IMG/VR virus record: IMGVR_UViG_3300027969_003137
Location: 23,519 to 87,518 of that record
Length of the DNA: 64,000 bases
Source: a virus
Strand: one strand, 5' to 3'
In this document: positions 38,706 to 58,444 of the stretch, piece after piece
Layout of the letters: each line of letters starts with the position of its first letter
How positions within the stretch are numbered: the stretch's first letter is position 1
Position numbers and translations under genes: made by a program
Notes under the pieces: model-generated
Seen by the model: the letters and a program-made list of their open reading frames with translations, nothing else
Told to the model about the DNA's origin: nothing
Databases searched by the model: none

Positions 38706-39429
38706 TGAAGGACTACGTCCAATGGACCTAGCCGAAATGGTTAATAAAACTTTTGAAGTAGATACCTTTCGATCAAAGATGGGCGAGGACCGTGACGTAT
38801 GTGTATTAACATTCACTGTGCTTGATAGAAATCCTGCAAAGGATCTCATGGAGTTTATCGAGAAGGGCTACGACTTTGTGCTAGATGCCGATGTCAGCAG
38901 TGGCGAGAATACCAATGGCGAGTATAGTGTATTTGTTGAATTGTCAAGAACCAAAGACCTTGCTGAACAGATCAAAGAACTAACCTACGGTATTAAAAAA
39001 CTAACAGGTATTGGTGATTGGGAATTCCGCTATCACAAAGACGGCAAGAAGTTTCAGGTATCAGAAGAAACTCTTAAATCAGTTATTCCACCATCGCCAG
39101 GTGCCTATGATGGACTAATGAGCAAGATGCGTACTGAAGGAATCAAACGTTTCTTCAACAAGACTCTAATGGACGATCTAACACTAGACGGTGATATTAT
39201 CACCATTCACAAACCTTTTGACCGACAGGTCAAACTGCGTATGGTTAAAGAAGCTGCTACCGATTCTATTCTAGAAGGTGTAGTAGATCCTATCACAATG
39301 GATGATGTTTCTACTAGCGAAATATTTTGGTTAACCAAAGTACTAGGCGACTACAATATCAACAAGGTAGGCGACAAATTTATGTTTGACAACAACGGTC
39401 AAGCAATGCTATTACAAAGGATAGATTAA
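38683..39429 (+). CDS. Hypothetical late protein
   Basis: 248 aa; N-terminal QQLNEGL is a possible Glu cleavage site. Confidence 0.75.
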   Translation: MPHSQQLNEGLRPMDLAEMVNKTFEVDTFRSKMGEDRDVCVLTFTVLDRNPAKDLMEFIEKGYDFVLDADVSSGENTNGEYSVFVELSRTKDLAEQIKELTYGIKKLTGIGDWEFRYHKDGKKFQVSEETLKSVIPPSPGAYDGLMSKMRTEGIKRFFNKTLMDDLTLDGDIITIHKPFDRQVKLRMVKEAATDSILEGVVDPITMDDVSTSEIFWLTKVLGDYNINKVGDKFMFDNNGQAMLLQRID

Positions 39430-40058
39430 TGAGCTTTACATTCGATTTTACAAAAGACCAACTGAAAGAAATGATTCCCAAGAATTCCTATGTGGATCAA
39501 TGGTTTGAAGCATTAGACAATATACTACCAGAGTACGATATCACAACTCCACAACGTGTGGCTGCTTTCCTAGCACAGTGCGCTCACGAAAGCGGTGGTT
39601 TTGTTTTCCTAAAAGAAAACCTAAACTACAAGGCAGCAAGCCTACGCAGAGTGTTTCCCAAGTATTTTCCAGACGATGCCATTGCTGCTCAGTATGCTGG
39701 CAAGGGCGAAATGATTGCCAATCGAGTGTATGCTAATCGTATGGGCAATGGCTCAGAAGCATCAGGCGATGGATTTAAGTACTGCGGTCGTGGGCTTATT
39801 CAGTTGACTGGCAAGAACAACTACACATTCTTTGCAGGATCGCTAGACATTCCTGTAGAAGAAGCCAGCGAATACCTACAGACATTCGAAGGCGCTGTGC
39901 AGTCAGCCTGTTTTTTCTGGGAACAAAACAAACTAAATCAGTACGCAGATAGTGGTGATATTTTAACAATGACCAAACGTATCAACGGTGGCACCATTGG
40001 TCTAGAAGATCGCATCAAGCATTACGAACACGCATTACACATATTTGGAGCAGCATAA
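39429..40058 (+). CDS. Glycoside hydrolase family 19 endolysin
   Basis: AFLAQCAHESGGF, ENLNY, GRGLIQLTGKNNY, TKRINGG..GL.DR. Confidence 0.95.
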   Translation: MSFTFDFTKDQLKEMIPKNSYVDQWFEALDNILPEYDITTPQRVAAFLAQCAHESGGFVFLKENLNYKAASLRRVFPKYFPDDAIAAQYAGKGEMIANRVYANRMGNGSEASGDGFKYCGRGLIQLTGKNNYTFFAGSLDIPVEEASEYLQTFEGAVQSACFFWEQNKLNQYADSGDILTMTKRINGGTIGLEDRIKHYEHALHIFGAA

Positions 40059-41653: not shown

Positions 41654-42376
41654 ATGAAAACACAACTACTATTAGAGTTTGCCAACATAGCGCAAACTAC
41701 CTACGACAATCCTAAAGACTCTAAAGCTAAGTTTAAAGCACTGGGCTATACCATTGTTCAATTCTTTGACATCGATGGCGCACAGGCATACCTGTTAACT
41801 AATGGCACAATAACAGTATTGTCCTTTAGAGGTACCGAAGTGACACAGAAGTCAGATGTATTGGCAGACTTAAAAGCCGGTAAGAATATTGAAGCCTGTG
41901 GTGGCAAGGTACACGTTGGCTTCAAAGGTGAGATAAACAAACTATGGCCCAGTATCTCTAAAGCGTTAACAGACAATCCAGGTAATATATATGTAACTGG
42001 ACACAGTCTTGGTGCTGCCATGGCAACTATTGCTGCTAGTCGTATGCAGGATCGTGTAACGGCATTGGTAACATTTGGTTCACCGAGAGTGGGCAATAAA
42101 GAGTTTGTTGACAGTGTGTTTGTTGACCATTATAGAGTACAGAACAACTGCGATGATGTGACCAAAGTTCCTTTTATGTTGATGGGATTTACACACCACG
42201 GAACACACAAGTATATGAACTTCAATGGTGAGTTTAGAGACTTGACTCCTTGGCAACAGGTAAAAGACATGGTCCGTAGCAGATTGCGAGCCAGAGCCAA
42301 GGGTCAAAAGTATATTGGCGTTTTTGATCACATGATGGCAAACTATATTTCCAAGTTAGAGAAGTTAGGAATGTAA
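41654..42376 (+). CDS. Class 3 lipase (alpha/beta hydrolase)
   Basis: SFRGTE, VHVGF, VTGHSLGAAMA, TFGSPRVGN, DDVTKVP, C-terminal DH. Confidence 0.92.
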   Translation: MKTQLLLEFANIAQTTYDNPKDSKAKFKALGYTIVQFFDIDGAQAYLLTNGTITVLSFRGTEVTQKSDVLADLKAGKNIEACGGKVHVGFKGEINKLWPSISKALTDNPGNIYVTGHSLGAAMATIAASRMQDRVTALVTFGSPRVGNKEFVDSVFVDHYRVQNNCDDVTKVPFMLMGFTHHGTHKYMNFNGEFRDLTPWQQVKDMVRSRLRARAKGQKYIGVFDHMMANYISKLEKLGM

Positions 42377-42396: not shown

Positions 42397-42930
42397 ATGA
42401 GCGAAGCAGTAAAAAGCGCAAGCGAACAAAAGAAAGAAGATTGGATGAACTCAAAATGGCGTCCAATGATGGGTTGGATGTATATGGTTGTCTGTATGAT
42501 GGACATGGTTATATTTCCAATCTTATGGAGTCTATTACAAACAATGACTCATAGTCCTATTACACAATGGAATCCACTAACGCTACAAGGTGCTGGATTA
42601 TTCCACATTGCAATGGGTGCAGTTTTAGGTATTGCGGCATTTGGTCGTACACAAGAAAAACTAGGAGGAGCAAACAATGGCGGAATACAAACACCAGCAA
42701 CAGGATTTGCGAGCGGGCCTTCAACATTTGGCCAACCGCAATCAGGAGGCTTCGGCAACTCCAGCGGTTTTAATTCACCAGCACCAAACACAAGTTTTGC
42801 GCCAGCACCAAGTTGGGGCACAACCCCAGTGGCAGCATCCGGCGGATTCGGCGCACCAGCAACAGGTCAAGTAGTAGCAGGGTTTGGCGGCAAGCCGGCA
42901 CCCATGCAACCAGAGCAACCACAAATTTAA
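42397..42930 (+). CDS. Holin of the 3TM/GTA-holin-like family with a Gly/Pro-rich tail
   Basis: KWRPMMGWMY ... GAVLGIAAFGRTQEK. Confidence 0.7.
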   Translation: MSEAVKSASEQKKEDWMNSKWRPMMGWMYMVVCMMDMVIFPILWSLLQTMTHSPITQWNPLTLQGAGLFHIAMGAVLGIAAFGRTQEKLGGANNGGIQTPATGFASGPSTFGQPQSGGFGNSSGFNSPAPNTSFAPAPSWGTTPVAASGGFGAPATGQVVAGFGGKPAPMQPEQPQI

Positions 42931-43247: not shown

Positions 43248-44105
43248 ATGAACTACTATTCAACTCTTGGTTTACAAAGAAACGCCTCTGAAGACGATAT
43301 CAAAAAAGCATATCGAAAAATGGCAATGAAACATCACCCCGATCGTGGGGGTGATGAAAAAACATTTAAACAGGTTTCCGAAGCCTACGAAATACTCAGC
43401 GACCCCCAGAAAAAACAAATGGTAGATATGGGTGTTGATCCCAAGACTCAACAGGCTGGTGGAGGCCGACATCAACAGGGACCATTTGAATTCCACTTTA
43501 ACAGTGGCAATTTTGAAGATGTCTTTAGCAACTTTGGATTTGGGGGTGGCGGTCCGTTTGGATTTGGTGGACGCCAGCCTCAAAGAAATAAAACGATCAA
43601 CATCAATGTGGATCTATCACTAGAAGATGTACTTAACGGCAAAGAACTAGAGGCCGAACTTGCCGTACCTAGTGGCAAGAAGAAGATTATTAACATCAGT
43701 ATTCCGGCAGGTATCGAAGGCGGCCAGCAGATCAGATACCAGGGTATGGGCGATAATGCAATCCCAGGTATACCACCCGGCGATCTAATTGTTAACATAC
43801 GAGTTGCTCCTCATCCTATCTTTAGAAGAGACGGGGATTCTTTACTTGTAGAAAAAGATATATCAGTATGGGATGCCTTGTTGGGATGTAATTTAACTTT
43901 ACAAACACTGGACGGTAAGAATTTAAATATCACTATCCCGGCCGGAACACAGCCAGAGACTGTGCTGAGCTGTAGGAACGAAGGCGTGCCAAATATGCGC
44001 AACAGATATCGAGGCAACTTGCTACTTAAAATTAAAGTGGTCGTTCCCAGGAATCTAACTGTAACTCAGATCACGACAATAGAGAATCTAAAGAATGGAA
44101 TTTAA
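43248..44105 (+). CDS. dnaJ: DnaJ/CbpA-type co-chaperone without zinc finger
   Basis: J domain with HPD, G/F-rich linker, C-terminal domains (GDL.V, IPAGTQ). Confidence 0.93.
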
Positions 44106-44598
44106 ATTAGGACCCTATAACAGCCTATCGCAAACAAGCACTGAATGGCTATTTGATACGTCCGAGTCAATTGCTCAGGCTCGAGAGCTTGAAGATGCTA
44201 TGATAAATTTTATGGTGGCAAATAAAGGCATTGGACTTGCTGCCAATCAGATCGGTATAACTAAACGTGTGTTTACCATGGGCAGCAACAATATTGAAGG
44301 ATTCCCCTTTCCCTTTGCTGCATTTAATCCTAAAATTATAAGTGCCGGCTCTGAAGAAGATTTAACTGAAGAAGGATGCCTAAGCTATCCTGACCTATGG
44401 TTAAAAGTTAAAAGACCTACAAACATTGTTGCAGAATATCAAGACTGTGACAGTAATACACATACCGTTGAGATGTCTGGCTTAATTGCTAGATGTTTTC
44501 AACATGAATTAGATCATCTAAATGGTGTGTGTTTTGTTGACAAAGTATCACCTATGAGATTACAATTAGCTATGAAGAAGTTAAGGAAAAGGAAATAA
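44095..44598 (+). CDS. def: Peptide deformylase
   Basis: [24 protein letters not shown]. Confidence 0.96.
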
Positions 44599-46934
44599 TG
44601 ATCGAACCGAGCCAAAATTTACAACAGATTTTTGATAATGCTGTGTCAGTTGCTAAAGACATGCAACATGAATACATCACAATCGAACATCTTGTTTACA
44701 GTATCATGTGTGATCAAGAATCATACCAAATCATAGAAAACTATGGTGCTGATGCTAATTTTATTAAAACAAATCTAGATCATTATATAAAAAATAATCT
44801 TAAAGAAATTATTGTTAATGAAACAGACCATAAACCTAAAAAGACCAGTTCTGTAGAACGTGTACTGAATCGCTGCTTTACTCAAGTGCTGTTTAGCGGG
44901 CGGCAAAAGATGGAAGTTGCTGATATTATTATCAGCGTACTCAGCGAGAAAAATAGTTTTAGTTTTTACTTTTTAACAAAAGGTGGACTAACCAAAGACA
45001 AATTTGTTAAATACTTCCAAGAAAATATCGTTATTGATGAAGAAGACCATCCACCAATGCAGGTAACCAATAATAATCAGATGGAAAGAATCATTAATCA
45101 ATTCTGTACTAATCTTAGCCTACAGGCTAAACAACGTAAAATAGATCCCGTTATTGGGCGGGAAGAGGAACTTGAAAATATTCAATTGATTCTAGCTCGG
45201 CGTAGTAAGTGTAATGTCCTGATGGTTGGAGAACCGGGTGTAGGTAAAACTGCTATTGCAGAGGGACTTGCACGTAAAATCTTTGAAAAGAAAGTTCCTA
45301 AGTTTATTCAAGACCATCAAGTCTATACACTAGATATCAGTGCCCTACTTGCAGGTTCTAAGTATCGTGGTGACTTTGAAGAACGCATCAAAGCTGTATT
45401 AGCAGCATTAGAAAAGAAAGGCAAGATCATATTGTTTATTGATGAAGCACATATGATGCAAGGCGCTGGCGCTGCTAATAACAGCAGCAACGATATGGCC
45501 AATATGTTAAAGCCTATTCTTACCAAAGGTATTATTAAATTAATTGCATCAACTACTTGGGAAGAATATCGCAAGCACTTTGAAAAGGATCGTGCGCTCA
45601 TGCGTCGATTCCAACGTGTCACTATCGATGAGCCTACACCAGAGTTAAGTGTTAAGATTGTTAAGGGTATTAGAAAATACTACGAGCGGCATCACAATGT
45701 TAAAATTACAGATGCTGCTATTGATCAAGCCGTAAAGCTGTCTGTTAAATATATGGCAGACAAGAAGTTGCCCGATAAGGCCATTGACATTATCGACTGT
45801 GCCGCAGCACGTTATAAATTAAAAGACGATCCAGAAATGGAAGGAGTTGAACAACTAGTCGATGTTGAACAAATTACCTATGAACTTTCTAAGATGATCA
45901 ATATGCCTTTAGAAATGGTAGCACAAAAAGAAAGTAAAAATCTAGCAGAACTAGAAAGCGGAATGAAGTCTGCTGTTTACGGTCAAGATGGCGCAGTAGA
46001 TACATTACTAGATAAAATCTTTGTAGCACAAGCAGGTATGAAACAGCCTAATAAACCTATTGGCAGCTTCTTGTTCCTTGGCCCTACTGGCTGCGGCAAA
46101 ACAGAAACAGCAAAACAGCTTTCTGAAAAAATGTCAATGCCGTTAATACGATTCGATATGAGCGAATATCAAGAAAAGCACAGTGTTGCTAGATTAATTG
46201 GCGCTCCTCCGGGCTACGTGGGTTATGAAGATAATGCGGGGCAACTAATTACTAAACTACAAGAAATGCCTAATTGTATCTTGTTGCTAGACGAAATTGA
46301 AAAAGCTCATCCAGATGTTTCAAATATTTTGTTAGGCTTTATGGACAACGGGTTTGTGACTGGATCTAACGGCAAACAAGCAGACGGCCGCAATTGTATT
46401 CTTGTTATGACTTCAAATCTAGGTGCTAGGGACAATGAGAATAACACCATTGGCTTTGGTGATTTAGATAAAGACGGAGAGGATGATAAAGCACTTAAAA
46501 AGTTCTTTGCTCCTGAATTCCGCAATCGATTAGATGCTGTTATCAAATTCTCTAAACTTTCACAATCTGTTGTATCACAAATTGTTAAAAAGTTTATTGC
46601 TGAATTAAACAGTCAGTTGAAAGATAAGAATATCGAAATTACTCTAAATGCAGATGCAATAAATTGGTTATCCAATAACGGTTTCGATAAAAAGATGGGT
46701 GCTAGGCCGTTGGCTCGATTGATTGATAACAAGATTAAATCGCCATTAAGTCGTAAAGTGCTGTTTGGTGAATTGCAAAACGGCGGTAATATTGCAGTTT
46801 CAGTTGTTAACGGAGATTTAAATTTTGATATCGGGCCGTTTCTAACTAAGGAACAAAAACGGGCAATTAAACGAGGAACACCAACTGAGGTAGTACAAGA
46901 TGTATCAGAAAATACAGAAAACCAAGACAACTAA
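44598..46934 (+). CDS. clpA: ClpA-like Hsp100 ATPase
   Basis: Clp N-domain, two AAA modules (GEPGVGKT, GPTGCGKT), GAPPGYVG, IGF ClpP-docking loop, MGARPL. Confidence 0.93.
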   Translation: MIEPSQNLQQIFDNAVSVAKDMQHEYITIEHLVYSIMCDQESYQIIENYGADANFIKTNLDHYIKNNLKEIIVNETDHKPKKTSSVERVLNRCFTQVLFSGRQKMEVADIIISVLSEKNSFSFYFLTKGGLTKDKFVKYFQENIVIDEEDHPPMQVTNNNQMERIINQFCTNLSLQAKQRKIDPVIGREEELENIQLILARRSKCNVLMVGEPGVGKTAIAEGLARKIFEKKVPKFIQDHQVYTLDISALLAGSKYRGDFEERIKAVLAALEKKGKIILFIDEAHMMQGAGAANNSSNDMANMLKPILTKGIIKLIASTTWEEYRKHFEKDRALMRRFQRVTIDEPTPELSVKIVKGIRKYYERHHNVKITDAAIDQAVKLSVKYMADKKLPDKAIDIIDCAAARYKLKDDPEMEGVEQLVDVEQITYELSKMINMPLEMVAQKESKNLAELESGMKSAVYGQDGAVDTLLDKIFVAQAGMKQPNKPIGSFLFLGPTGCGKTETAKQLSEKMSMPLIRFDMSEYQEKHSVARLIGAPPGYVGYEDNAGQLITKLQEMPNCILLLDEIEKAHPDVSNILLGFMDNGFVTGSNGKQADGRNCILVMTSNLGARDNENNTIGFGDLDKDGEDDKALKKFFAPEFRNRLDAVIKFSKLSQSVVSQIVKKFIAELNSQLKDKNIEITLNADAINWLSNNGFDKKMGARPLARLIDNKIKSPLSRKVLFGELQNGGNIAVSVVNGDLNFDIGPFLTKEQKRAIKRGTPTEVVQDVSENTENQDN

Positions 46935-47946: not shown

Positions 47947-47993
47947 CTGATATCATTCGATAAATATAGTATGACCTTACGGAATCGTATTAT

Positions 47994-48332
47994 ATGCTAT
48001 TGAAAGAAATGTTTAGCCCTATGGGCGCACCAAAAGACGAACAGCCTGACATAGATTGGATCGGCGATCTCAAATTCTATATGGATAATAACGATCAAAT
48101 GCTGAACAAGCATTTTTTCCCTGCGGTTAAACGCCATAAAGAGCATCGTGGCAACCCTAATGCTTACAAAATTTACGTTCGTTCACTAGAAGGCTGCTTA
48201 GAAAGCTATTGCGAAAAGTACGAAGTTGAAGATTACAAAGAAAAGTTCCCTAAAGAAAAACTAGAGGAGTTGGCTAAACAAATAGTCACACAACAAGAAA
48301 AGTTTATGGAAAGAGGCGACTACGATAAATGA
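47994..48332 (+). CDS. Hypothetical protein, possible internal head protein
   Basis: N-terminus MLLKEMF; late box upstream. Confidence 0.7.
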   Translation: MLLKEMFSPMGAPKDEQPDIDWIGDLKFYMDNNDQMLNKHFFPAVKRHKEHRGNPNAYKIYVRSLEGCLESYCEKYEVEDYKEKFPKEKLEELAKQIVTQQEKFMERGDYDK

Positions 48333-49222
48333 AGCTTCTAGAATTATTTGAGCAATCGGGAAAAACTGCTGCCGTAGCGTTTGGTAGAATGAACCCACCT
48401 ACGATCGGTCACCAGAAGGTAGTCGAAGCTATCCTAAAACAAAAAGCAGATGCTCATTTTTTATTTGTTTCTCAAACTCATAAGGCAACTGGCAAAAATC
48501 AAACAAGATTAGAAAACCCACTACCCTTTGATATCAAACTGGGATTTATCCAGCAGGCATTTCCTAATATCGATATCGGAGATACATCTGTAAGCACAGC
48601 CATAGGTATTCTTCAGTATTTAGAAAAACAGGGCTTTGAGAATGTGGTCTTTGTATGCGGCTCGGACCGTGTGCCAAGTTTTACAGAATTGTTCAATAAA
48701 CAAAACGGGGTTGATTATAATCTCAAATCAATTAAGATTGTATCAAGCGGTGCTAGGGATCCCGATGCAGAAGGTGCCGAAGGCATGAGCGCAAGCAAAA
48801 TGCGAGCTGCTGCAATTGCTGGTGACATCGACACATTTAAAACAGGATTACCAGCAGGACTAAGTGGTGATGCTGAGGAAGTATTTTCTGCAGTTAGGCA
48901 AGGACTTGAGCCTTGGTTAAAACAAGAAACTGTGCCCGAAGGATGGAAAAGTAAAGTTGCTGGTGCTACATTAGCAGGAGCCGCTGCACTAGGTAGTGGC
49001 GGTGTGTATGCTCAAAGTTCAGGAGAAGATTATCTTCCAGACATAGTTGCACATGTGACATTTGAGGTTAACGGAAAAGAAATATCCAAAGACATCAATT
49101 TAGGAACACAATACAAGTCTCCAAAAGAGGCTTCCCAAGCCCTTGAAAAATTCTTAAAGTCTAAGGGTATTAAATTTTATGATTTTAGTCTTGAACGTGT
49201 AAAACCCAAAGACGATAATTAA
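48329..49222 (+). CDS. Cytidylyltransferase-like (HIGH family) protein with capsid-targeting-like N-terminus and C-terminal add-on module
   Basis: AFGRMNPPTIGH, NPL, VCGSDRV, RDPDAEG..GMSASKMR. Confidence 0.85.
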   Translation: MKLLELFEQSGKTAAVAFGRMNPPTIGHQKVVEAILKQKADAHFLFVSQTHKATGKNQTRLENPLPFDIKLGFIQQAFPNIDIGDTSVSTAIGILQYLEKQGFENVVFVCGSDRVPSFTELFNKQNGVDYNLKSIKIVSSGARDPDAEGAEGMSASKMRAAAIAGDIDTFKTGLPAGLSGDAEEVFSAVRQGLEPWLKQETVPEGWKSKVAGATLAGAAALGSGGVYAQSSGEDYLPDIVAHVTFEVNGKEISKDINLGTQYKSPKEASQALEKFLKSKGIKFYDFSLERVKPKDDN

Positions 49223-49248
49223 TTAAAACGGGTAATAAAGGGATAATC

Positions 49249-50247
49249 ATGAAAGCAAAAGAATTTATTATAGAACTTAAAAAAGAATCAAAGCCTAGAA
49301 ACTTTGTAGCCAAGAACGCCAAGATGGGCGGTGCTGGCCAGCACAAGGATAAAAAGAAAGCTGAAAAACAAGGTGATGTCAAACACAAGAATAAAGAGTA
49401 CGCAGAAAGTGTAGAGGAAGGCTGGAAAGATAAGGTTGCAGCCGCAGGACTTGCTGGTGCAATGGCATTCGGAGCTGGTGGGGCTCATGCTAGAGTTTCT
49501 GGAGATCAAGATCCTAGTATCAATCGATTAACCGGCAAACCTATTGCAACGCAACAAGCAACCGATGTTGCTCCTGCAAAAGCAGAAGCACCTAAAGGAT
49601 TTAGTAAAGAGTATCTACAGTCTGTAGTAGACGGTAAGCATCCAAGACCAATGGTTAGTGTTGAAAAAGCAAAAGAGCTATTGAAGAATATGTCAGAAGG
49701 CTCATTAAAAGAATTGTCTACTGAAAAGCTAGCACAATATAAAAAGGCAGCCTATGCGGATGCCAAACAGTCAGATGCAGACGGAAAGTACGCTCGTGGC
49801 GACAAACGGTTTAGTGGCATTAATAAAGCTACTAGCAAACAGTTTGACAACGATCTTAAGAAACATAGACAGCAAGGTGTGGCGGAGGCCGGTATGTACA
49901 CCAAGCCAGGTAGTCCGTCTGCCTACGATAGAGACTATCGTGCTAGCGTAAGTGGCATGGGTAAGAAAGACTCGTTAGCATATCAACAAGATGGCGGTGC
50001 TAACGACGAATATCCTAGTGAACCTAATCGTCCGTACCAAGCACCTCAAGACAGGCCAGTACTAAAAGGTTATTATTTCTACAATGTACAGCCTGGACAG
50101 GAAGATGATGCTGGAATGTACGGTGTCAAGAAAACTAAGTCAGGCAAGTGGGCAAAAGCCAAGTATTCAACTAGCGGCCGATCATTTGATATGCAGAAAG
50201 ATGGCGCTGATAAAGCATTTGGTGCAGGTAAATGGTGGTCTCTATAA
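49249..50247 (+). CDS. Modular putative internal head polyprotein
   Basis: MKAKEFIIE; modules bounded by VEEG, MSEG, LKEL and QGVAEA. Confidence 0.7.
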   Translation: MKAKEFIIELKKESKPRNFVAKNAKMGGAGQHKDKKKAEKQGDVKHKNKEYAESVEEGWKDKVAAAGLAGAMAFGAGGAHARVSGDQDPSINRLTGKPIATQQATDVAPAKAEAPKGFSKEYLQSVVDGKHPRPMVSVEKAKELLKNMSEGSLKELSTEKLAQYKKAAYADAKQSDADGKYARGDKRFSGINKATSKQFDNDLKKHRQQGVAEAGMYTKPGSPSAYDRDYRASVSGMGKKDSLAYQQDGGANDEYPSEPNRPYQAPQDRPVLKGYYFYNVQPGQEDDAGMYGVKKTKSGKWAKAKYSTSGRSFDMQKDGADKAFGAGKWWSL

Positions 50248-50453
50248 TGGACGAACTTGCTGATATCAAGCGTCTAGCAGGCATTACTGAGTTCAAAGGT
50301 CTACAGCCATACGGCGGCAGCAATATCAGTATTACAGGTATGACCAATCAAGAACTTGAACGCAAGCATGATATTAGACCCGGTTCACCGGAATGGTTTC
50401 AGTTATGGTTTTCAAAACCATATCTAACAGGCGAAAAAAAGGTAGGAAAATAA
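50247..50453 (+). CDS. Hypothetical protein
   Basis: MDELADIKRLAGITE...IRPGSPEWFQLWFSKPYLTGE. Confidence 0.7.
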   Translation: MDELADIKRLAGITEFKGLQPYGGSNISITGMTNQELERKHDIRPGSPEWFQLWFSKPYLTGEKKVGK

Positions 50454-50780
50454 ATGGTTGAGATAACAGAATCAGCAAAATTAAAGATTATAGATCTGCT
50501 GCTAGAAGAAAATAATCCTAAGCTGGCATTGCGCACCTTTGTACAAGGCGGCGGATGCAGTGGCTTTAGCTATGGCTTTACCTTTGATGAAGAAAAGAAC
50601 GAAGACGATTTTGAATTTCCCATCAACGAACAGTACAACGTATTTGTCGATGCGATGAGTATGCAATACTTGCAAGGTGCAGTTATTGATTATAAAGAAG
50701 AAGCAATGGGCAGTCAGTTTGTCATTAGCAACCCTAATGCCCAATCAACTTGCGGATGCGGGAGCAGTTTTTCAGTATGA
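50454..50780 (+). CDS. erpA: A-type Fe-S insertion protein
   Basis: [47 protein letters not shown]. Confidence 0.93.
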
Positions 50781-50854
50781 ACCCCAACCAGTATCCAGTG
50801 TATCCAGAAGACGATGGCCACGATCGTTATAGAAATCCCTATTCACCAGTGTGA
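50777..50854 (+). CDS. 25-aa peptide (absent from the ORF track)
   Basis: ATGA overlap with the erpA stop; [25 protein letters not shown]; fills the intergenic gap. Confidence 0.45.
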
Positions 50855-50863
50855 GATTATATT

Positions 50864-51484
50864 ATGAAGATAACAGAAATTTTAATCGAAGGTGTAGCAG
50901 GGCCAAAGAACTGCTGGCCTGGTCATAGAAAAGTTGGCACACAACCTGGCACGGGCAAGAATAAAGGCAAGCGTGTCAACGACTGCGAAAAGATTAAAGA
51001 AGCAGGTTCACCAGCACAGCAGGCAGCTATTGCTATTGCCAAAAAGAAAAAGCAAGGTGTGACGGAAGGCTTACACCAAGAATTTGACATGATTGAAAAC
51101 ATCATTGAACAGATTGCAGAGCAACATGCCGTTGACGTTGACCTTGTATGGGAAGATTTATCAACCCTTACAGATGATGAGCTATATGTGTTTGCAGTAA
51201 CATCAGAGATGGTCAACGAAGATTGGCAAAAGGCCAACAAGCGAGACAAGACTGACGGTATGAGCAAGAAAGCTGTCAATGCCTATCGTAGAGAAAATCC
51301 AGGGTCAAAATTAAAGACTGCGGTGACAACTAAGCCCGGCAAATTAAAGAAAGGTTCAAAGGCCAGCAAGCGCCGATCAAGCTATTGTTCTAGATCAGCC
51401 GGACAACAGAAAATGCATAATATCAGCTGTTCAAAAACTCCTGACAAGGCAATATGTAAAGCAAGGCGTCGTTGGAACTGCTGA
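50864..51484 (+). CDS. Modular putative internal head polyprotein
   Basis: MKITEILIEG; modules CWPGH..VG...VNDC, IKEAGSPAQQAAIAI, QGVTEG, VNEDWQK...RRSSYCSRS...ARRRWNC. Confidence 0.7.
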   Translation: MKITEILIEGVAGPKNCWPGHRKVGTQPGTGKNKGKRVNDCEKIKEAGSPAQQAAIAIAKKKKQGVTEGLHQEFDMIENIIEQIAEQHAVDVDLVWEDLSTLTDDELYVFAVTSEMVNEDWQKANKRDKTDGMSKKAVNAYRRENPGSKLKTAVTTKPGKLKKGSKASKRRSSYCSRSAGQQKMHNISCSKTPDKAICKARRRWNC

Positions 51485-51485
51485 T

Positions 51486-52208
51486 ATGAGAGCGCAAGAG
51501 TTTGTAGTCGAAAAGAAAAAACGTAAGCGTAGACCTCGGTATGCTGCCTACGGTCCGGGCCCTTACGGCGGCTACGGATACTATGCTGGCTACAGCGGAG
51601 ACAGTGGATCCGAAGGTGGCGGCGACGGGGGTGGCGGTGGCGAAAGTATAAATCATGAAGCCTCATACCCTGGCAACATCGGCATGATGGAGTTGGCCAA
51701 GTTTTTTAGTATGGCCGATGAAGAACAAAAAACCATGTTCAAGCAACTGCTAGAGAAAGGCAAGAAGGGCTTGGCTTGGAAACTGGTACAAGACATTGTG
51801 GGTGTTAAACTACAGGGGTCAGAATTCAATGAAGATGCCATGATGGGAAAAATTGAAGACGGCGGAAAAATTGTTCGCATATTAAAAAAACAACACAGCG
51901 TACCGTTTAGCGATGAAAAAAACTGGCTGTTGATTGATACTGATCCTGCCAAAGGCAACAAAGGTCTTGGACTTAAATGGGTTCCGGCAAGTACTAGATT
52001 TACCTGGGTACGTCCTTACAAAGAAACCGTGGATGAAAACTTTGCTGATGGTAAGAATCCGCAGGACAAAGGCGATTCAAAACGTCATGGCATTAATACT
52101 AAAGGATCAGTGAGTAGTCTACGAAAAACTGCCAAACAGGGCGGACGCAAAGGACAACTAGCACACTGGCTGGCCAACATGAAAGCTGGAAGGGCTAAAA
52201 AGAAATGA
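51486..52208 (+). CDS. Modular putative internal head polyprotein
   Basis: MRAQEFVVE; modules EASYPGNIGMME, FNED and VDENFADGKNP...AHWLANMK.G. Confidence 0.7.
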   Translation: MRAQEFVVEKKKRKRRPRYAAYGPGPYGGYGYYAGYSGDSGSEGGGDGGGGGESINHEASYPGNIGMMELAKFFSMADEEQKTMFKQLLEKGKKGLAWKLVQDIVGVKLQGSEFNEDAMMGKIEDGGKIVRILKKQHSVPFSDEKNWLLIDTDPAKGNKGLGLKWVPASTRFTWVRPYKETVDENFADGKNPQDKGDSKRHGINTKGSVSSLRKTAKQGGRKGQLAHWLANMKAGRAKKK

Positions 52209-52360
52209 GAGCTCACGAATTTATTTCTGAAAAACGCAAGATTCCCTTTGCGGGAGCAAAAGTTGGGCACAAAGAAGGCCCAGCAGGGCAGTGGCGCAAC
52301 AAAGGTCCCAAGGCAAATAAGCCCGCTAAACAGGGCGACCTAGTAGGCGGCGCTACTTAA
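52205..52360 (+). CDS. 51-aa basic peptide with capsid-targeting-like N-terminus (absent from the ORF track)
   Basis: MRAHEFISEKRKIPFAGAKVGHKEGPAGQWRNKGPKANKPAKQGDLVGGAT. Confidence 0.7.
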   Translation: MRAHEFISEKRKIPFAGAKVGHKEGPAGQWRNKGPKANKPAKQGDLVGGAT

Positions 52361-52374
52361 CTATAAATAATAGT

Positions 52375-52551
52375 ATGAAACTAAAAGAATTGTTCGAGAC
52401 AGCGTCAGGTATGGGTGCAGGAGATGTTGCTACCTTTATTAAGAACGGTTCTGGAGCGGGCGTGGGTACTCTTTTTGGGGGTAGTTATCAGCAGAAATCT
52501 GCCAAAAAACCCAAGGCAAAGAAGCCTCGCGAAAGTATATTAAGAAGATAA
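52375..52551 (+). CDS. 58-aa basic peptide with capsid-targeting-like N-terminus (absent from the ORF track)
   Basis: TATAAATA box, then MKLKELFETASGMGAGDVATF...KKPRESILRR. Confidence 0.7.
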   Translation: MKLKELFETASGMGAGDVATFIKNGSGAGVGTLFGGSYQQKSAKKPKAKKPRESILRR

Positions 52552-52558
52552 ATATAGT

Positions 52559-52861
52559 ATGGACTTTAAAAAACCCGATCACGAAGCAGAAATGGCAAAA
52601 GCAGAACTAGCTCAGATAGCTAAAAATGCTATGGCCATTTATCGTATGATCAAAGAAGGCGACGAGTTAGATGGTTGGATCAGCAGTTATATCTCTGTGG
52701 CCAACGATCATTTAAATTCTGTTCACGAGAAGATGGATTACGAATCTCAAGCACATGGTGCTGTTAATCAAGGTCCTAGAGAATTTGAAGAATCAACGCA
52801 GTACCAAATTAAAAGCAATCTGTGCGAACAGTGGCTAGAGAAAAAATATCAAGGAAGATAA
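52559..52861 (+). CDS. Hypothetical late protein
   Basis: DHEAEMAKAEL...ELDGWISSYISVANDHLNSV; late box upstream. Confidence 0.75.
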   Translation: MDFKKPDHEAEMAKAELAQIAKNAMAIYRMIKEGDELDGWISSYISVANDHLNSVHEKMDYESQAHGAVNQGPREFEESTQYQIKSNLCEQWLEKKYQGR

Positions 52862-52863
52862 AA

Positions 52864-53901
52864 ATGGATTTTAAATCAATCATCAGCAAACTAGACAGCA
52901 TGGAAGCACCTCCACAGACTCCTGCTGCTCCTAAATTGGATAAAGCTGTTCAACTAAACGAAGATGCACAATTGCGTGTACTAAGTGGTCGTTCTACATA
53001 CGTTGCAGAAGCCAAGAAAAAGGCCGAAGAAGATGTCAAAGAAGAAATGAAAGTTGGCGACAAAAAGGCTAGTTCTACAGGTGGCACTATTGAAAAGACA
53101 GCTACTGGTATCAAGCACACAGCTGGCAAGAACTATGGTGGCGATAAGGCTCCTAAAGATGACGACAGTGATGACGAGCCAAAAGCTAAGAAAGCCAAAA
53201 AAGAAAGCATTGAGCCACAATTCAAATCTAAGTTCATGAAGATGGTGGAAGCGGCTAAAGAAGAAAGCGAAGCTGATGCCAAGAAGAAAAAAGAAGACAA
53301 GAAAAAGAAAATGGCCAAGATCATGGACGAAGGTGCTAAGCCAGACTTTCTAGACATGGACAAAGACGGTGACAAGAAAGAGCCAATGAAAAAAGCTGCC
53401 GGTGACAAAGGCGGAGACAAGAAAGACGGCAAGAAAGGTATGAGTGCTGCTCAAGCCAAGTACTTTGGTAAGAAAGAATCAGTTGAAGAAGCTGCTGAAA
53501 TGAAAACTGGTGATAAGAAAAAGTCTTCCACAGGCGGCACAATTGAAAAAACTGCCACTGGTGTCAAGCATACAGCTGGTAAGAACTATAGCGGCAAGGC
53601 AGCAGAAGCTGACAAAAAGAAAACTGACGAAAGCAAGATGATGCCAAAAGGCAAGAAGCGTCCTGTTAAAGAATCAATTGAAAACATTTTATCATTCAAA
53701 GACATGATCAAACTTGTGCAAGAGAGTGGTGGACAACAACAAATTGATGCAGTTGATCAAGAATTGTTTTCTTGGGCTCAACGTGTTGCCAAACAAAAAA
53801 TTGGTGAAGGCCTAAAAGCCGATGTGTATGCAGGTATGGTATATGAGCGTATGGGTGGCGTATTCGAAATGTACGATGTACTAAGCGAAGACCAAAAGTA
53901 A
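52864..53901 (+). CDS. Lys/Glu-rich prohead core/internal-type protein with internal duplication
   Basis: Two copies of EMKxGDKKxSSTGGTIEKTATGxKHTAGKNY; KPDFLDMDKDGDKKEPMK. Confidence 0.7.
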   Translation: MDFKSIISKLDSMEAPPQTPAAPKLDKAVQLNEDAQLRVLSGRSTYVAEAKKKAEEDVKEEMKVGDKKASSTGGTIEKTATGIKHTAGKNYGGDKAPKDDDSDDEPKAKKAKKESIEPQFKSKFMKMVEAAKEESEADAKKKKEDKKKKMAKIMDEGAKPDFLDMDKDGDKKEPMKKAAGDKGGDKKDGKKGMSAAQAKYFGKKESVEEAAEMKTGDKKKSSTGGTIEKTATGVKHTAGKNYSGKAAEADKKKTDESKMMPKGKKRPVKESIENILSFKDMIKLVQESGGQQQIDAVDQELFSWAQRVAKQKIGEGLKADVYAGMVYERMGGVFEMYDVLSEDQK

Positions 53902-53919: not shown

Positions 53920-53953
53920 AAAGCCGGCAATTTAGTTGACCGGCTTTTTCTTT
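53920..53953 (+). terminator. Intrinsic terminator ending the late block
   Basis: AAAGCCGG...CCGGCTTT followed by TTCTTT. Confidence 0.75.
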
Positions 53954-53964
53954 GACTATATAAT
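53936..53964 (+). promoter_or_regulatory. Sigma70 promoter overlapping the terminator
   Basis: TTGACC-17 nt-TATAAT. Confidence 0.75.
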
Positions 53965-54258: not shown

Positions 54259-55389
54259 TTGACTCAATCTAATTATTGTGCGGCAATTTATAAGGGACTG
54301 TATGTTTCTGCCGAATCTAATAACCAAGCCAAGATAAGCGCCTGTTGTGTTAACCAAACAGGACCAGCAACATCTGTAATCGATTTTCATAAAGATGTAT
54401 ATCTAACCAATCAACGTGAAGAGTTCAACAAAGGCAATAGACCTAGTAATTGTGACTTCTGTTGGCGCAAAGAAGATGCAGGATTGTCTAGTCGTAGAGA
54501 AAGAAGTATTATTAAACCGTCGGAAGATCCCTATGAAGTTGAATTGTTAACAATGCACTATAATGTTGCTCCGTTATGCAATGCCAAATGTATTACCTGT
54601 GGAAGTCAGTGGAGTAGTGCTTGGGCTGCAGAGGACGAGAAGTTTAATACTGTAGGCGTTGACTTTCGCAGTTTTAATCAAATACGTAAATCTGACCCAG
54701 AATTTAATGTGGACTTTAGCAAGCTAACACAGATTTACTTCAACGGGGGCGAGCCGTTCCTAAGCACAGATGTCAATAGGATCTTAACCAAAGTTAAAGA
54801 ACAACAGGGCTCGTTAGACAAATTGAGCCTAGTGGTCAATACTAATTGTAGCATCATGCCTACTAAGAAAGATGTAGCTCTTTGGAACAAATGTAAGTCT
54901 ATATCTCTAATCTGTAGTGTTGAAGCAGTAGGTGCGCAGTTTGAATATATACGCTATCCATTAAGTTGGGATGAAGTATCTCACAATGTAGATAACTTTG
55001 GCTCACTATTTGATAAACAGCTAGTAATTAATATATCCCCTAATCTAGGAGTACATAATGCTCTAGAGTTTGACAATCTAGTTAATTGGTTCAATGGCCT
55101 TGCACAGGATAATACTACCTATATACTAAATCCAGAACTAACTGTAGGAACGTTATCATTTGACACAGTATCTGCTGATGTTAAAGCGGCCATGCTAGAA
55201 ATTATACCCACAGGACAGCAGTTTGATAAACTCAGACTATTTGTTCAAACGAGTACAAATGGTAATAACTCCAGATGGATTAACACACTTAATAATATAG
55301 ACTATAGACGTGGTCTAAACTGGGCTGAAGTGTTTCCAGAACTATCTAGACTAATACAACAGAATTCAACAGTTGACAATATTAAATAA
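54259..55389 (+). CDS. Radical SAM protein with N-terminal twitch/SPASM-like domain
   Basis: CNAKCITC (CxxxCxxC), FNGGEPF, VNTN; N-terminal C...CC...CDFCW; TTG start. Confidence 0.88.
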   Translation: MTQSNYCAAIYKGLYVSAESNNQAKISACCVNQTGPATSVIDFHKDVYLTNQREEFNKGNRPSNCDFCWRKEDAGLSSRRERSIIKPSEDPYEVELLTMHYNVAPLCNAKCITCGSQWSSAWAAEDEKFNTVGVDFRSFNQIRKSDPEFNVDFSKLTQIYFNGGEPFLSTDVNRILTKVKEQQGSLDKLSLVVNTNCSIMPTKKDVALWNKCKSISLICSVEAVGAQFEYIRYPLSWDEVSHNVDNFGSLFDKQLVINISPNLGVHNALEFDNLVNWFNGLAQDNTTYILNPELTVGTLSFDTVSADVKAAMLEIIPTGQQFDKLRLFVQTSTNGNNSRWINTLNNIDYRRGLNWAEVFPELSRLIQQNSTVDNIK

Positions 55390-55774: not shown

Positions 55775-58444
55775 TTGAGTTATGTAGACGCTTTCTATAA
55801 TAGAGAGCAGGATATGATTCACGTCGTCGAACGTGATGACAAAGGTAATAGACATTACAAAGAATATCCTGCTAGACATATATTTTATTACCCAGATGCC
55901 AAGGGTAAATTCACAAGTATTTTTGGACAACCTCTTTCACGAGTAAGTTCTAAAAATGTCAAAGAACATCGCAAAGAACTTGCAATTCATTCAAACAAAA
56001 AACTGTTTGAAAGTGACATCAACCCGATCTATCGTTGTCTAGAAGACAACTATCTTAATCAAGACGCACCAAAATTAAACATAGCGTTCTTTGACATTGA
56101 GGTCGACTTTGACCCAGAACGTGGCTATGCATCACCTGAAGATGCATTCATGCCTATCACCGCTATTGCTGTTTATCTGCAATGGATGCAGACCATGGTG
56201 TGTTTGGCAATTCCTCCTAAAACATTATCAATGGAAGAAGCACAAAAACAAGTTGAAGAATTCCCCAATACCATGCTGTTTGACAACGAAGCAGACATGT
56301 TAGATACGTTCTTGGATCTAATTCAAGATGCAGACGTACTAAGTGGTTGGAACTCAGAAGGCTTCGATATTCCGTATACTGTTAACCGTGTGACCAAAGT
56401 TCTTAGCAAAGAAGACACACGTAGATTCTGTTTGTGGAATCAGTTTCCCAAGAAGCGTGAGTACGAAAAATACGGTAAAGCTGCGGTCACTTATGACCTT
56501 ATTGGTCGTGTACACTTAGACAGTCTTGAACTGTATCGCAAGTACACATATGAAGAACGACACACATATCGATTGGATGCCATCGGCGAGATGGAAATTG
56601 GTGAAAACAAGACGGTGTACGAAGGTACGCTCGATCAACTGTACAACAATGACTTCCGTAGGTTTATTGAATACAACAGACAAGACTGTATGCTGTTGGA
56701 AAAACTAGACAAGAAACTAAAGTTTCTAGATCTTGCTAATACACTGGCACATGAATGTACTGTGTTGTTGCAGACCACTATGGGTGCTGTGGCAGTCACT
56801 GAACAGGCCATTATCAACGAAGCTCACAAGCGTGGATTCATTGTGCCTAACAGAGTGTCTCGAGAAGAAGGTTTCAGCAATCAAGCTGCCGGTGCCTATG
56901 TTGCTTACCCCAAGAAAGGCATTCACGAGTGGATTGGTTCTTTAGATATTAACTCGTTGTATCCTTCAGCGATTCGTGCCTTGAACATGGGTCCAGAAAC
57001 TATTGTTGGACAATTGCGTCAAGATGGTACCAAAGACTTTATTGCAGCAGAAATTGGTAAAGGAAAGTCATTCGCCTCAGCATGGGAAGGTATCTTTGGT
57101 TCATTAGAATATGCAGCCGTACTGGAAAAAAATGTTGGACGCGAAATCATCATTGACTGGGAAGATGGCGGAGTCGATACTCTGAGTGCTGCTCAGGCCT
57201 ATGATCTAATCTTTGAATCAAATCAACCTTGGATGCTTTCAGCTAACGGTACTATCTTCACTTATGAAAAAGAAGGGATCATCCCTGGATTGTTAAAACG
57301 TTGGTATGCTGAACGTAAAGACATGCAGGCCAAATTAAAAGAATGTATAAAGGCGGGAAATAAAATTGAAGAAGAATACTGGGACAAACGTCAGCTTGTT
57401 AAAAAGATTAACCTCAACAGTCTCTATGGTGCTATTCTTAATCCTGGTTGTCGTTTCTTTGATAATCGTATTGGTCAGTCCACCACACTCACTGGCCGTG
57501 CCATTGCCCGGCATATGGCTGGTAAGGTAAACGAAATTATCACAGGCGAAAACAATCATACAGGTAAAGCCATTATCTATGGTGATACAGACTCGTGTTA
57601 TTTCTCAGCGTACACTACACTAAGAAAAGAAATTGATCAAGGAGCTCTTCCTTGGACTAAAGAATCAGTTGTCGATCTATATGATACCATTGGGGAAGAA
57701 GTAAACTCAACCTTTCCCAAGTTCATGCAAGATGCGTTCCATTGTCCTAAGACTCGGGGTGAAGTTATCAAAGCAGGACGGGAGATTGTTGCCAGTCGCG
57801 GCTTGTTTATCACAAAGAAACGATATGCTGTATTGTATTACGATAAAGAAGGCAAACGTGCAGACATAGACGGCAAGCCCGGCAAGATCAAGGCCATGGG
57901 ATTAGATCTCAAACGTAGTGATACTCCTGTGGTTATTCAAGACTTTTTAAGTGAAGTATTGACCAAAGTTCTAAATAACGGTACCAAAGAAGATGTACTA
58001 GAATATATTACTGCGTTCCGTACTGAGTTTAAAGTTAGACCCGGTTGGGAAAAAGGATCACCTAAACGTGCTAATAACATTTCAGAGTACCGCGACAAAG
58101 AAAAGAAAGCAGGTAAGACTAACATGCCCGGACACGTTCGAGCAAGTCTTAACTGGAACACTTTGAAGCGTATGATGGATGACAAATATTCAATGGCTAT
58201 TACAGACGGTGCCAAGGTGATCGTTTGTAAGGTCAAAGATAATCCAATGGGGTATACATCAGTTGCCTACCCTGTAGATGAACTTAGACTACCTCAATGG
58301 TTTAAGGACTTACCTTTTAACGATGCCGAAATGGAAAATGCAGTCATCGATGAAAAGTTAGAAAACTTGATTGGTGTTTTGGAATGGGACATCAGTTCAA
58401 CTCGCAGTGATAATACATTTGCAAAATTGTTTGACTTTGAGTAA
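55775..58444 (+). CDS. Family B DNA polymerase (T4 gp43-like)
   Basis: Exonuclease motifs FDIEVD, GWNSEGFD, YNRQD; polymerase motifs LDINSLYPS, KKINLNSLYG, YGDTDS, KKRYA. Confidence 0.97.
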   Translation: MSYVDAFYNREQDMIHVVERDDKGNRHYKEYPARHIFYYPDAKGKFTSIFGQPLSRVSSKNVKEHRKELAIHSNKKLFESDINPIYRCLEDNYLNQDAPKLNIAFFDIEVDFDPERGYASPEDAFMPITAIAVYLQWMQTMVCLAIPPKTLSMEEAQKQVEEFPNTMLFDNEADMLDTFLDLIQDADVLSGWNSEGFDIPYTVNRVTKVLSKEDTRRFCLWNQFPKKREYEKYGKAAVTYDLIGRVHLDSLELYRKYTYEERHTYRLDAIGEMEIGENKTVYEGTLDQLYNNDFRRFIEYNRQDCMLLEKLDKKLKFLDLANTLAHECTVLLQTTMGAVAVTEQAIINEAHKRGFIVPNRVSREEGFSNQAAGAYVAYPKKGIHEWIGSLDINSLYPSAIRALNMGPETIVGQLRQDGTKDFIAAEIGKGKSFASAWEGIFGSLEYAAVLEKNVGREIIIDWEDGGVDTLSAAQAYDLIFESNQPWMLSANGTIFTYEKEGIIPGLLKRWYAERKDMQAKLKECIKAGNKIEEEYWDKRQLVKKINLNSLYGAILNPGCRFFDNRIGQSTTLTGRAIARHMAGKVNEIITGENNHTGKAIIYGDTDSCYFSAYTTLRKEIDQGALPWTKESVVDLYDTIGEEVNSTFPKFMQDAFHCPKTRGEVIKAGREIVASRGLFITKKRYAVLYYDKEGKRADIDGKPGKIKAMGLDLKRSDTPVVIQDFLSEVLTKVLNNGTKEDVLEYITAFRTEFKVRPGWEKGSPKRANNISEYRDKEKKAGKTNMPGHVRASLNWNTLKRMMDDKYSMAITDGAKVIVCKVKDNPMGYTSVAYPVDELRLPQWFKDLPFNDAEMENAVIDEKLENLIGVLEWDISSTRSDNTFAKLFDFE

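Follow-up and report, generated by a model that had tools for sequence, protein, structure and literature searches.

Why should seven neighboring genes of a virus, coding for proteins with otherwise unrelated bodies, begin with nearly the same eight or nine residues? The question is raised by a 64,000-nucleotide (nt) stretch of the IMG/VR virus record IMGVR_UViG_3300027969_003137 (positions 23,519 to 87,518 of that record; hereafter the window, whose numbering is used throughout unless otherwise said). Here, a block at 47994-52551 holds seven open reading frames (ORFs) that share an N-terminal tag; we call them g1, g2, g3, g6, g7, g8, and g9 (Table 1). A preliminary description, made from the sequence letters, had listed these seven starts and N-termini, and all of them are present, each on the plus strand. 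The record is a linear viral contig of 87,518 bp with 40% G+C and an estimated completeness of 25%, which together point to a jumbo phage of roughly 350 kb. We find it reasonably probable, though well short of certain, that the seven tags are T4-type capsid targeting sequences in a shortened form, carried by a fast-shuffling head-cargo block of a jumbo lake phage. The seven tagged proteins, one enzyme among them, would thus probably be packed with the DNA and delivered to the next host cell.

The tag begins at Met1, at the first ATG of the frame, in all seven ORFs, and its shared form is M, K/R/L, x, x, E, F/L/I, I/F/V/L, (x), E. The regular expression ^M[KRL]x{2,3}E[FLIM][FLIVM] was run on the 1145 ATG starts of the whole contig, on both strands, that have at least 25 codons to the stop. 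Eight starts matched, seven of which are the block ORFs, clustered within 4.6 kb, and the eighth a 30-amino-acid (aa) ORF on the minus strand. Six of the seven tags end in L/I/V-x-E; the exception, g1 (MLLKEMFS), resembles T4 ipI. In the T4 record the corresponding N-termini are MKTYQEFIAE (ipII and ipIII), MKTFKEFTS (ipI), MELITELFDE (alt), MAKINELLRE (gp24), MLKEQLIAE (gp22), and MNEPQLLIE (gp21). A score independent of the window tags was built as the mean BLOSUM62 value against the seven residues up to the Glu of five T4 propeptides, and was applied to 996 ATG starts of the contig (167 with a Glu at position 8-11). With this T4-only score, g6, g7, g8, and g3 rank 1, 3, 4, and 5 of 996, where g6 is tied at 12.6 with an esterase/lipase-like ORF at 41654, and g8 and g3 at 10.4 with an internal ATG. 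The likeness to the T4 capsid targeting sequence therefore holds, in these ranks and in the hydrophobic-x-Glu endings. According to PMC9026906, targeting by the ipIII tag depends on residues 4 (Tyr) and 7 (Phe) and processing on residues 8 and 10; aligned on the Glu, four of the seven tags (g3, g6, g7, and g8) have Phe, Leu, or Ile at the place of Phe7.

The tag codons differ synonymously among the seven genes as well as among orthologues (CTA/TTA, GAA/GAG, TTT/TTC, AGC/AGT/TCA), and therefore it is the peptide that is conserved. A search with g2 brought 80 related IMG/VR loci, of which nine (L004-L012) are close, at 60-89% identity. In the window and these 80 loci, 3038 ORFs, read from the first ATG, reach 45 aa or more. 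The tag opens 107 of them, every one of which shares its strand with the cytidylyltransferase gene, and it opens none on the other strand. Since most real genes lie on the enzyme-gene strand, the zero among the largely spurious ORFs of the opposite strand is a useful control. Behind the tags, the bodies of the seven proteins are unrelated in an all-against-all BLASTP comparison. Their sole shared module is a 34-aa segment of g2 and g3 (62% identity, E value 1.6e-9), and a weak likeness (E 0.005-0.03) lies in the first 33-49 residues, in basic stretches right behind three tags. When the tagged ORFs of all loci were clustered for independent families, shared modules chained 91 of the 107 bodies into one cluster. 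PMC3012670 and PMC9026906 describe the internal proteins of T4 as basic, with lysines in contact with the DNA; here g3, g6, g7, g8, and g9 have isoelectric points (pI) of 9.55-10.45 and 13-16% Lys, and g1 and g2 are acidic.

The one enzyme of the block is g2. It had been called cytidylyltransferase-like, and the fold and motifs of a nucleotidyltransferase are indeed found in it. Two families of phage cytidyltransferases match (phrog_3041, E 3.7e-50; phrog_395, E 2.4e-36), Pfam CTP_transf_like reaches 19.2 bits under a gathering cut-off of 21, and the NCBIfam NMNAT models stay far under their cut-offs. Among 46 homologues, F18, G19, R20, N22, P23, P24, T25, G27, and H28, and G152, M153, S154, A155, S156, K157, and M158 are invariant. 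These residues include the TIGH and SASKMR motifs, which correspond to the (H/T)xGH motif and the second, ISSTxxR-like motif of nucleotidyltransferases. AlphaFold2 models g2 with a mean predicted local distance difference test (pLDDT) of 82. Most 10-residue blocks of residues 11-197, a Rossmann-like domain, reach at least 87, residues 200-233, an unstructured linker, fall below 50, and a small beta-beta-alpha-beta domain occupies aa 238-291. Among known structures, Foldseek places it nearest to chains of phosphopantetheine adenylyltransferase (PPAT) and NaMN adenylyltransferase (NadD), with a probability of 1.00, E values from 7e-7, a target TM-score of 0.6-0.75, and 12-18% identity. The model and the motifs support g2 as a predicted enzyme of the nucleotidyltransferase alpha/beta superfamily. 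A PDB sequence search with g2 gave ankyrin-repeat matches only, which were dismissed as chance.

How does the tag behave across this enzyme family? Glu8 is at least 90% conserved in the 46 homologues, which are 35-87% identical to g2. A regular expression for the tag matches 51 of the 79 homologues with an ATG start; by eye, about 15 of the remaining 28 have related N-termini of 9-11 residues and 13 have none, these 13 starting at the enzyme domain or bearing a Lys-rich extension. The homologues of RaK2, phAPEC6, Phosso, and Atu_ph07 (177-201 aa) are untagged, three of them starting directly at the domain, which makes the tag an add-on to the enzyme. That the tag could be part of the enzyme fold was ruled out, as some homologues begin at the first domain strand and tag residues 1-10 have a mean pLDDT of 57.

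The enzyme also links the block to proteins detected in virions. With g2, tblastn returned 560 phage records, mostly the 'cytitidyltransferase' T4-GC190 of T4-like cyanophages. The T4-GC190 cytidylyltransferase was detected by mass spectrometry in S-SM1 virions (PMC3037559), and its homologue ORF154 is among the 52 virion proteins of S-CREM2 in Table 3 of PMC10665884, whose authors state that such enzymes are often seen in cyanophage virions. Outside the structural class, N-termini of listed S-CREM2 virion proteins are MKDFDSFLEE (ORF6), MKDLHSFLTE (ORF13), KRFDAFLTE after the initiator (ORF14, GTG start), and MKNFSSFLTE (ORF154); the hypothetical virion protein ORF136 starts MQTFSMFFSE. These five tags have the T4 length. 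At the four positions named above for ipIII they carry Phe or Leu (position 4), Phe (7), Leu, Met, or Phe (8), and Glu (10). The pattern ^M[KRQ].[FYLIMW]..[FLIM][LIFMVT].E matches 5 of 9564 S-CREM2 starts, and all five (ORFs 6, 13, 14, 136, and 154) are in the virion list. The tagged S-CREM2 virion proteins include an S-adenosylmethionine (SAM) hydrolase, a kinase, and the cytidylyltransferase, and a similar stretch, RFASFMAE, is found in the Cas9-like virion protein ORF12 at residues 18-25, counted from the annotated start. In S-SM2, the homologue of g2 starts MKSFFQFLSE behind a TAAATA box. Thus, g2 and the cyanophage proteins belong to one family, and the S-SM2 and S-CREM2 homologues are tagged behind late-type boxes; the cyanophage tags, however, have 10 residues with Phe at 4 and 7, closer to the T4 length than the eight of g2. 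We found no literature pairing 'capsid targeting sequence' with 'cyanophage', bar a review naming 'cyanophage' in its references only, and none pairing 'cytitidyltransferase' with 'virion'; subscription journals and supplements, as well as the primary Syn9 and S-PM2 proteome papers, lay outside the scope.

A candidate for the protease that would cut such tags is found in a relative. G001 (L095; 188 kb, 53% complete) has the same locus, with a g2 homologue 78% identical, and encodes an S77 prohead protease (86 bits, E 1.8e-25). An S77 protease is also present in G003, and none was found on three shorter relative fragments. The G001 head module (104412-115847) has a T4-like order: a portal-sized gene, a small gene, a scaffold-like gene, the protease, a scaffold-like gene, and a capsid-sized gene. 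Several N-termini of this module are tag-like, namely MKITDLIVE, MKLLEFFYF (the small gene beside the portal), and MLDFVKQLFE (scaffold position); the capsid-sized gene starts MSELLES.

If the tags work as in T4, the genes of the block would be expressed late, and each tag would bind the scaffolding core of the assembling prohead, such that the protein behind it becomes enclosed. A gp21-type (S77) prohead protease would then cut after the tag Glu, and probably also at internal hydrophobic-x-Glu junctions of the mosaic proteins described below. The mature pieces, five basic Lys-rich proteins or peptides and one nucleotidyltransferase, would stay with the DNA and enter the next host cell along with it.

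The closest known counterparts are the gp21-processed T4 proteins IPI, IPII, IPIII, and Alt. Like them, the block proteins have the tag at the extreme N-terminus, with EFIxE as in ipII and ipIII and ELF(x)E as in alt. Behind the tags stand mutually unrelated bodies, mostly small, basic, and Lys-rich, with one enzyme among them (T4 Alt is also an enzyme). There are late-promoter boxes, here before two of the seven genes, the genes lie away from the head module, and an S77 protease is present in a relative. In contrast to T4, whose tags have 10-19 residues and whose genes are scattered, the block tags have 8-9 residues and the seven genes lie in one 4.6-kb block. Moreover, several of the putative cargo proteins are built as mosaics, with Glu sites between the modules, and two have an internal segment resembling a signal peptide. 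The phage itself is a jumbo phage with a polymerase nearest those of Phosso, Atu_ph07, and RaK2-like phages (43-50%).

Several observations weigh against tags of T4 type. Where T4 has Tyr4, on which targeting depends, none of the seven is aromatic, and at 8-9 residues they fall short of the 10 of T4. g1 lacks a Glu at position 8 or 9, and g1, g2, and g9, with 8-residue or Glu-less tags, lie outside the top 25 of the T4-only score. In S-CREM2, the same score places none of the five tags in the top 20 of 6246 starts, and the pattern that singles them out is post hoc, drawn from those very N-termini; the S-CREM2 authors (PMC10665884) do not exclude co-purification of the enzymes. On the 87.5-kb contig (25% complete) there is no match to Peptidase_S77 or Gp23. 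A degenerate DNA pattern of the 9-residue tag gave 1-2 sites per complete genome and no arrays in Phosso, Atu_ph07, RaK2, phAPEC6, and S-SM2, six sites in total against one in a reversed control; both Phosso sites are starts of annotated hypothetical genes. Late boxes of their own are found at only two of the seven tagged genes. Finally, the T4 scaffold, protease, and vertex proteins have the same kind of N-terminus. Since T4 scaffold and core proteins carry similar N-termini, the tag alone cannot tell injected cargo from degraded core proteins.

That last point leads to the strongest alternative: the tags serve prohead targeting, but the proteins so targeted, or some of them, belong to the assembly core or scaffold; these would be degraded by the protease, leave the head like T4 gp22, gp67, and gp68, and not be injected. 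It gains from the N-termini of T4 gp22, gp21, and gp24, which are as close to the block tags as those of the internal proteins, and from G001, where a scaffold-position gene (MLDFVKQLFE) and the small portal-adjacent gene (MKLLEFFYF) begin in a similar manner. Mosaic proteins with several hydrophobic-x-Glu junctions would suit it as well, as would the low-complexity, Lys/Gly-rich make-up of g3, g7, and the downstream 345-aa protein. However, no head module is near the block, which is flanked by the ClpA-like gene and replication genes and contains an enzyme with a predicted fold and intact catalytic motifs, homologues of which were detected in mature virions. Furthermore, quick turnover of gene content suits arms-race cargo better than scaffold. 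We regard this alternative as unlikely.

A different reader of the tag appears distinctly improbable. The tag could be an N-terminal signal for something other than the prohead. A candidate is the ClpA-like unfoldase that the phage encodes 1 kb upstream, together with a DnaJ-like partner, and the signal would then time the unfolding, degradation, or delivery of the tagged proteins. N-terminal signals are recognized by unfoldases of the ClpA type; a full-length ClpA-like gene does stand beside a deformylase and a J-domain-like ORF, and in L009-L012, too, ClpA, the 228-aa gene, and the 118-aa gene precede the tagged array in this order. Yet the same kind of tag is found on proteins detected in S-CREM2 virions, and no Clp gene is present in the S-CREM2 feature tables examined. 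Moreover, the tags match T4 propeptides, and no sequence feature links them to Clp recognition. Least probable of all, and barely to be expected, are shared N-termini without a targeting role, as relics of cassette shuffling or duplication or through first-codon selection for translating late, possibly leaderless messages: modules are clearly shuffled at the locus and some late boxes lie 4-5 nt before the ATG, where first codons could affect initiation, but the amino-acid pattern survives many synonymous changes, Glu8 persists at 90% or more of the 46 homologues, other late-box genes of the contig (e.g., 47590 and 52559) are untagged, and none of the 107 tag matches among the 3038 ORFs lies on the minus strand.

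Head cargo, the reading we prefer, is also approached from the relatives of the locus. In L004-L012 the gene order is ClpA-like gene, 228-aa gene, 118-aa gene, g1, g2, g3, untagged small ORF, IscA, more tagged genes, two MDFK genes, and DNA polymerase. The tagged array keeps its place while its bodies vary from 64 to 509 aa: homologues of g7 have 64-387 aa and those of g2 203-509 aa. g1 is kept directly 5' of g2, the stop of g1 overlapping the g2 start (ATGA). g3 is a mosaic, with modules that relatives combine differently. In the window and L009, g8 stands as a tagged gene of its own, whereas in L006-L008 its body forms the end of the g3 homologue. The g7 C-terminal NFADGK module always follows a Glu directly, which is the tag Glu in a 64-aa gene of L010 (MRAHEFILE/NFADG, the slash marking the junction) and the end of VDE, EHE, NVE, or MEE elsewhere; likewise, a g3 module ends QQGVAE or KKGVAE at its junction in the window, L004, and L007. 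As judged from these sequences, the module junctions fit release by cleavage after Glu. L, I, or V at the third place before the cut is missing from some of them, and short shared junction motifs could equally be recombination sites. In relatives, proteins starting MRDLLSKL, which have a module in common with g6, lie 5' of g1.

Contigs from four lake runs, compared at 85% likeness and possibly stemming from related phages, contain joints that skip or replace parts of the genes, e.g., from 51616 to 51828 (three runs). A joint from 51482 to 52033 fuses a tag straight to the last g7 module. Segments 49391-49711, 51002-51078, and 51616-51828 are swapped for 15-34 other letters in such contigs, i.e., module swaps in the cargo genes at the population level. 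T-even internal-protein loci are polymorphic (Repoila et al. 1994, as cited in PMC9026906 and PMC3012670). So described, they share with our locus a quick gene turnover behind a constant tag, here with bodies of 64-509 aa. They differ in that shuffling here goes below the gene level, a module standing as a tagged gene of its own in one phage and within a larger protein in another.

The internal modules of g2 and g3 deserve a separate consideration. Each opens with GWK(S/D)K, continues with some 17 uncharged residues (Ala, Gly, and Leu), and closes with V/A-x-A. L004, L005, L007-L010, and G001 have variants of the module in proteins that are tagged or nearly so, every one after V/L-x-E. By eye, g2, g3, and eight homologous modules show a Sec-type signal pattern, although Ala/Gly-rich stretches meet the -3/-1 rule trivially, and the signal-like module of g2 and g3 is internal unless a protease exposes it. 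Elsewhere in the contig, such internal stretches are found only in evident membrane proteins, once in a 2448-aa tail-fibre-like protein, and in ORFs of 85-96 aa that are possibly not genes. From their sequence, the modules may be signal peptides, membrane anchors, or linkers. A bolder proposal, which we hold to be rather unlikely, is that the cargo proteins are polyproteins, cut by the prohead protease after the tag and after internal V/L-x-Glu. The g2 and g3 fragments would thereby obtain a GWK N-terminus and a hidden signal peptide or membrane anchor, by which host Sec would send the injected proteins to the membrane or periplasm within seconds, before phage gene expression. A further known counterpart of the tagged block is the phiKZ-like giant phage SPN3US. 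According to PMC5694885 and PMC7411985, long N-terminal propeptides of its ejection proteins gp47, gp53, and gp54 target the head and are cut after Glu by a gp21-related protease, and mature gp47 begins with a transmembrane segment. The gp53 cut AQE/GWKETLK (PMC7411985) resembles E/GWKSK and E/GWKDK of the block, a likeness of three residues that may be chance. In contrast to the block tags, the SPN3US propeptides, as described there, have 79-127 residues and an A-x-E cleavage motif, and their proteins have no sequence homology to the block proteins.

Is the block expressed late? Forward ATAAATA or TATAAATA boxes near it stand at 47579, 47960, 52363, and 52548; TATAAATA, which we take to be the T4 late consensus, occurs four times forward and never in reverse in the contig. 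The preliminary description had the block driven by TAAATA late boxes. This is only partly borne out, because a box within 35 nt upstream is found for g1 (47994) and g9 (52375) and for none of the other five. The box-less genes follow one another closely or overlap (an ATGA is shared by g1/g2 and by g7/g8, and a single base separates g6 from g7) and, on this arrangement, could be co-transcribed. An ATG 4 nt past the 47960 box opens a 10-codon ORF only, whose end crosses the g1 start. Just 4-5 nt separate the box from the next ATG at window positions 47579, 47960, 52363, and 52548 and contig positions 14664, 33692, and 35777, and the arrangement ATAAATA-TAGT-ATG occurs twice. With the spacing from box to transcript start known from T4, late transcripts from such boxes would begin at or beside the AUG and be leaderless. 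A sigma-70-like site at 53936-53964, 3' of the block, fits at 11 of 12 positions in a scan that as a whole is at chance level (14 promoters against 15.3 expected); the terminator scan is likewise at chance level (6 against 7.6 expected).

Coordinates are collected in Table 1.

Table 1. Tagged genes, late boxes, internal modules, and neighboring features (window positions).
Feature	Position	Strand	Description
J-domain-like ORF	43248-44105		J-domain-like start by eye, no family match; upstream of the tagged block
Peptide deformylase	44095-44598		phrog_2890, E 1.7e-37
ClpA-like AAA+ protein	44598-46934		Full length; TIGR02639, 893 bits against a cut-off of 993
ATAAATA box	47960-47966	+	Late-promoter-like; 34 nt 5' of g1
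g1	47994-48332	+	112 aa, acidic, pI 5.4; tag MLLKEMFS, no Glu at position 8 or 9
g2	48329-49222	+	297 aa, acidic; tag MKLLELFE; nucleotidyltransferase domain aa 11-197
g2 internal module	48941-49012	+	aa 205-228: GWKSK, uncharged Ala/Gly-rich stretch, VYA; directly after V-P-E; pLDDT below 50
g3	49249-50247	+	332 aa, basic, pI 9.55, 14.8% Lys; tag MKAKEFIIE
g3 internal module	49420-49491	+	aa 58-81: GWKDK, Ala/Gly-rich stretch, AHA; directly after V-E-E
Untagged ORF	50232-50453	+	73 aa, conserved in relatives, which start at MDELADIK (window 50247)
Untagged IscA/HesB-like gene	50454-50780	+	Iron-sulfur assembly; 108 aa, acidic; Pfam PF01521, E 2.6e-18
g6	50864-51484	+	206 aa, basic, pI 9.6; tag MKITEILIE; C-terminal DUF6321 (PF19846, E 7.8e-9; phrog_727)
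g7	51486-52208	+	240 aa, basic, pI 9.76; tag MRAQEFVVE, then Lys/Arg run, Gly-rich stretch, C-terminal NFADGK module
g8	52205-52360	+	51 aa, basic, pI 10.45; tag MRAHEFISE
TATAAATA box	52363-52370	+	5 nt before the g9 ATG
g9	52375-52551	+	58 aa, basic, pI 10.35; tag MKLKELFE; kept as a 58-60 aa ORF in 5 loci
ATAAATA box	52548	+	After the last tagged gene, ahead of the MDFK genes
Untagged gene starting MDFK	52559-52861	+	100 aa
Untagged gene starting MDFK	52864-53901	+	345 aa, 20% Lys, internal repeat

The two short peptides g8 and g9, which had been proposed as genes missed by the ORF track, are real genes, given that codon differences from the L009 orthologues are more often synonymous than non-synonymous (17 against 7 for g8, 10 against 2 for g9). 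Pfam, PHROGs, and NCBIfam searches gave no family for g1, g7, g8, or g9, tblastn of g3 against phages gave no match, and in the protein atlas g7 had one match at 0.75 (below the guide value of 0.9) and g1 none. The untagged 73-aa ORF is probably not cargo. The IscA/HesB-type gene sits untagged within the cargo block in all close relatives. Both MDFK genes are putative late genes behind the array, and the 345-aa one carries a repeated unit, KK(A/S)SSTGGTIEKTATG(I/V)KHTAGKNY.

Just 5' of the block, the J-domain-like ORF, the deformylase, and the ClpA-like gene form a protein-handling cluster (43248-46934) that is syntenic in relatives. The esterase/lipase-like ORF (41654-42376; phrog_21992, E 2.1e-21), which shares the top T4-only score, starts MKTQLLLE and adjoins endolysin-like (39429-40058) and holin-like (42397-42930) genes; its N-terminus may mark an eighth tagged protein or match by chance. 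Downstream of the block lie a radical-SAM-like gene (54259-55389) and a family-B DNA polymerase (55775-58444), the latter nearest to those of Sinorhizobium phage Phosso (50% identity), Agrobacterium phage Atu_ph07 (46%), and RaK2-like phages (43%). No near-identical DNA was found in the phage collection searched. The stretch occurs in freshwater and lake metagenomes; beyond the likely source run, five runs of four other studies contain 30-64% of its sampled words.

Should the tags function as they do in T4, then T-even coliphages would not be alone in loading their heads by means of a short N-terminal address that is later removed; jumbo lake phages and the abundant T4-like cyanophages would do so as well. 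This would provide a simple sequence rule for predicting the enzymes that a phage brings into the cell. It would also explain the recurring 'non-structural' proteins of cyanophage virions (cytidylyltransferase, kinase, SAM hydrolase), which the S-CREM2 authors could not separate from contaminants. New short tags for putting foreign proteins into phage heads would become available. Furthermore, the block would represent a fast-evolving set of first-strike proteins in uncultured phages.

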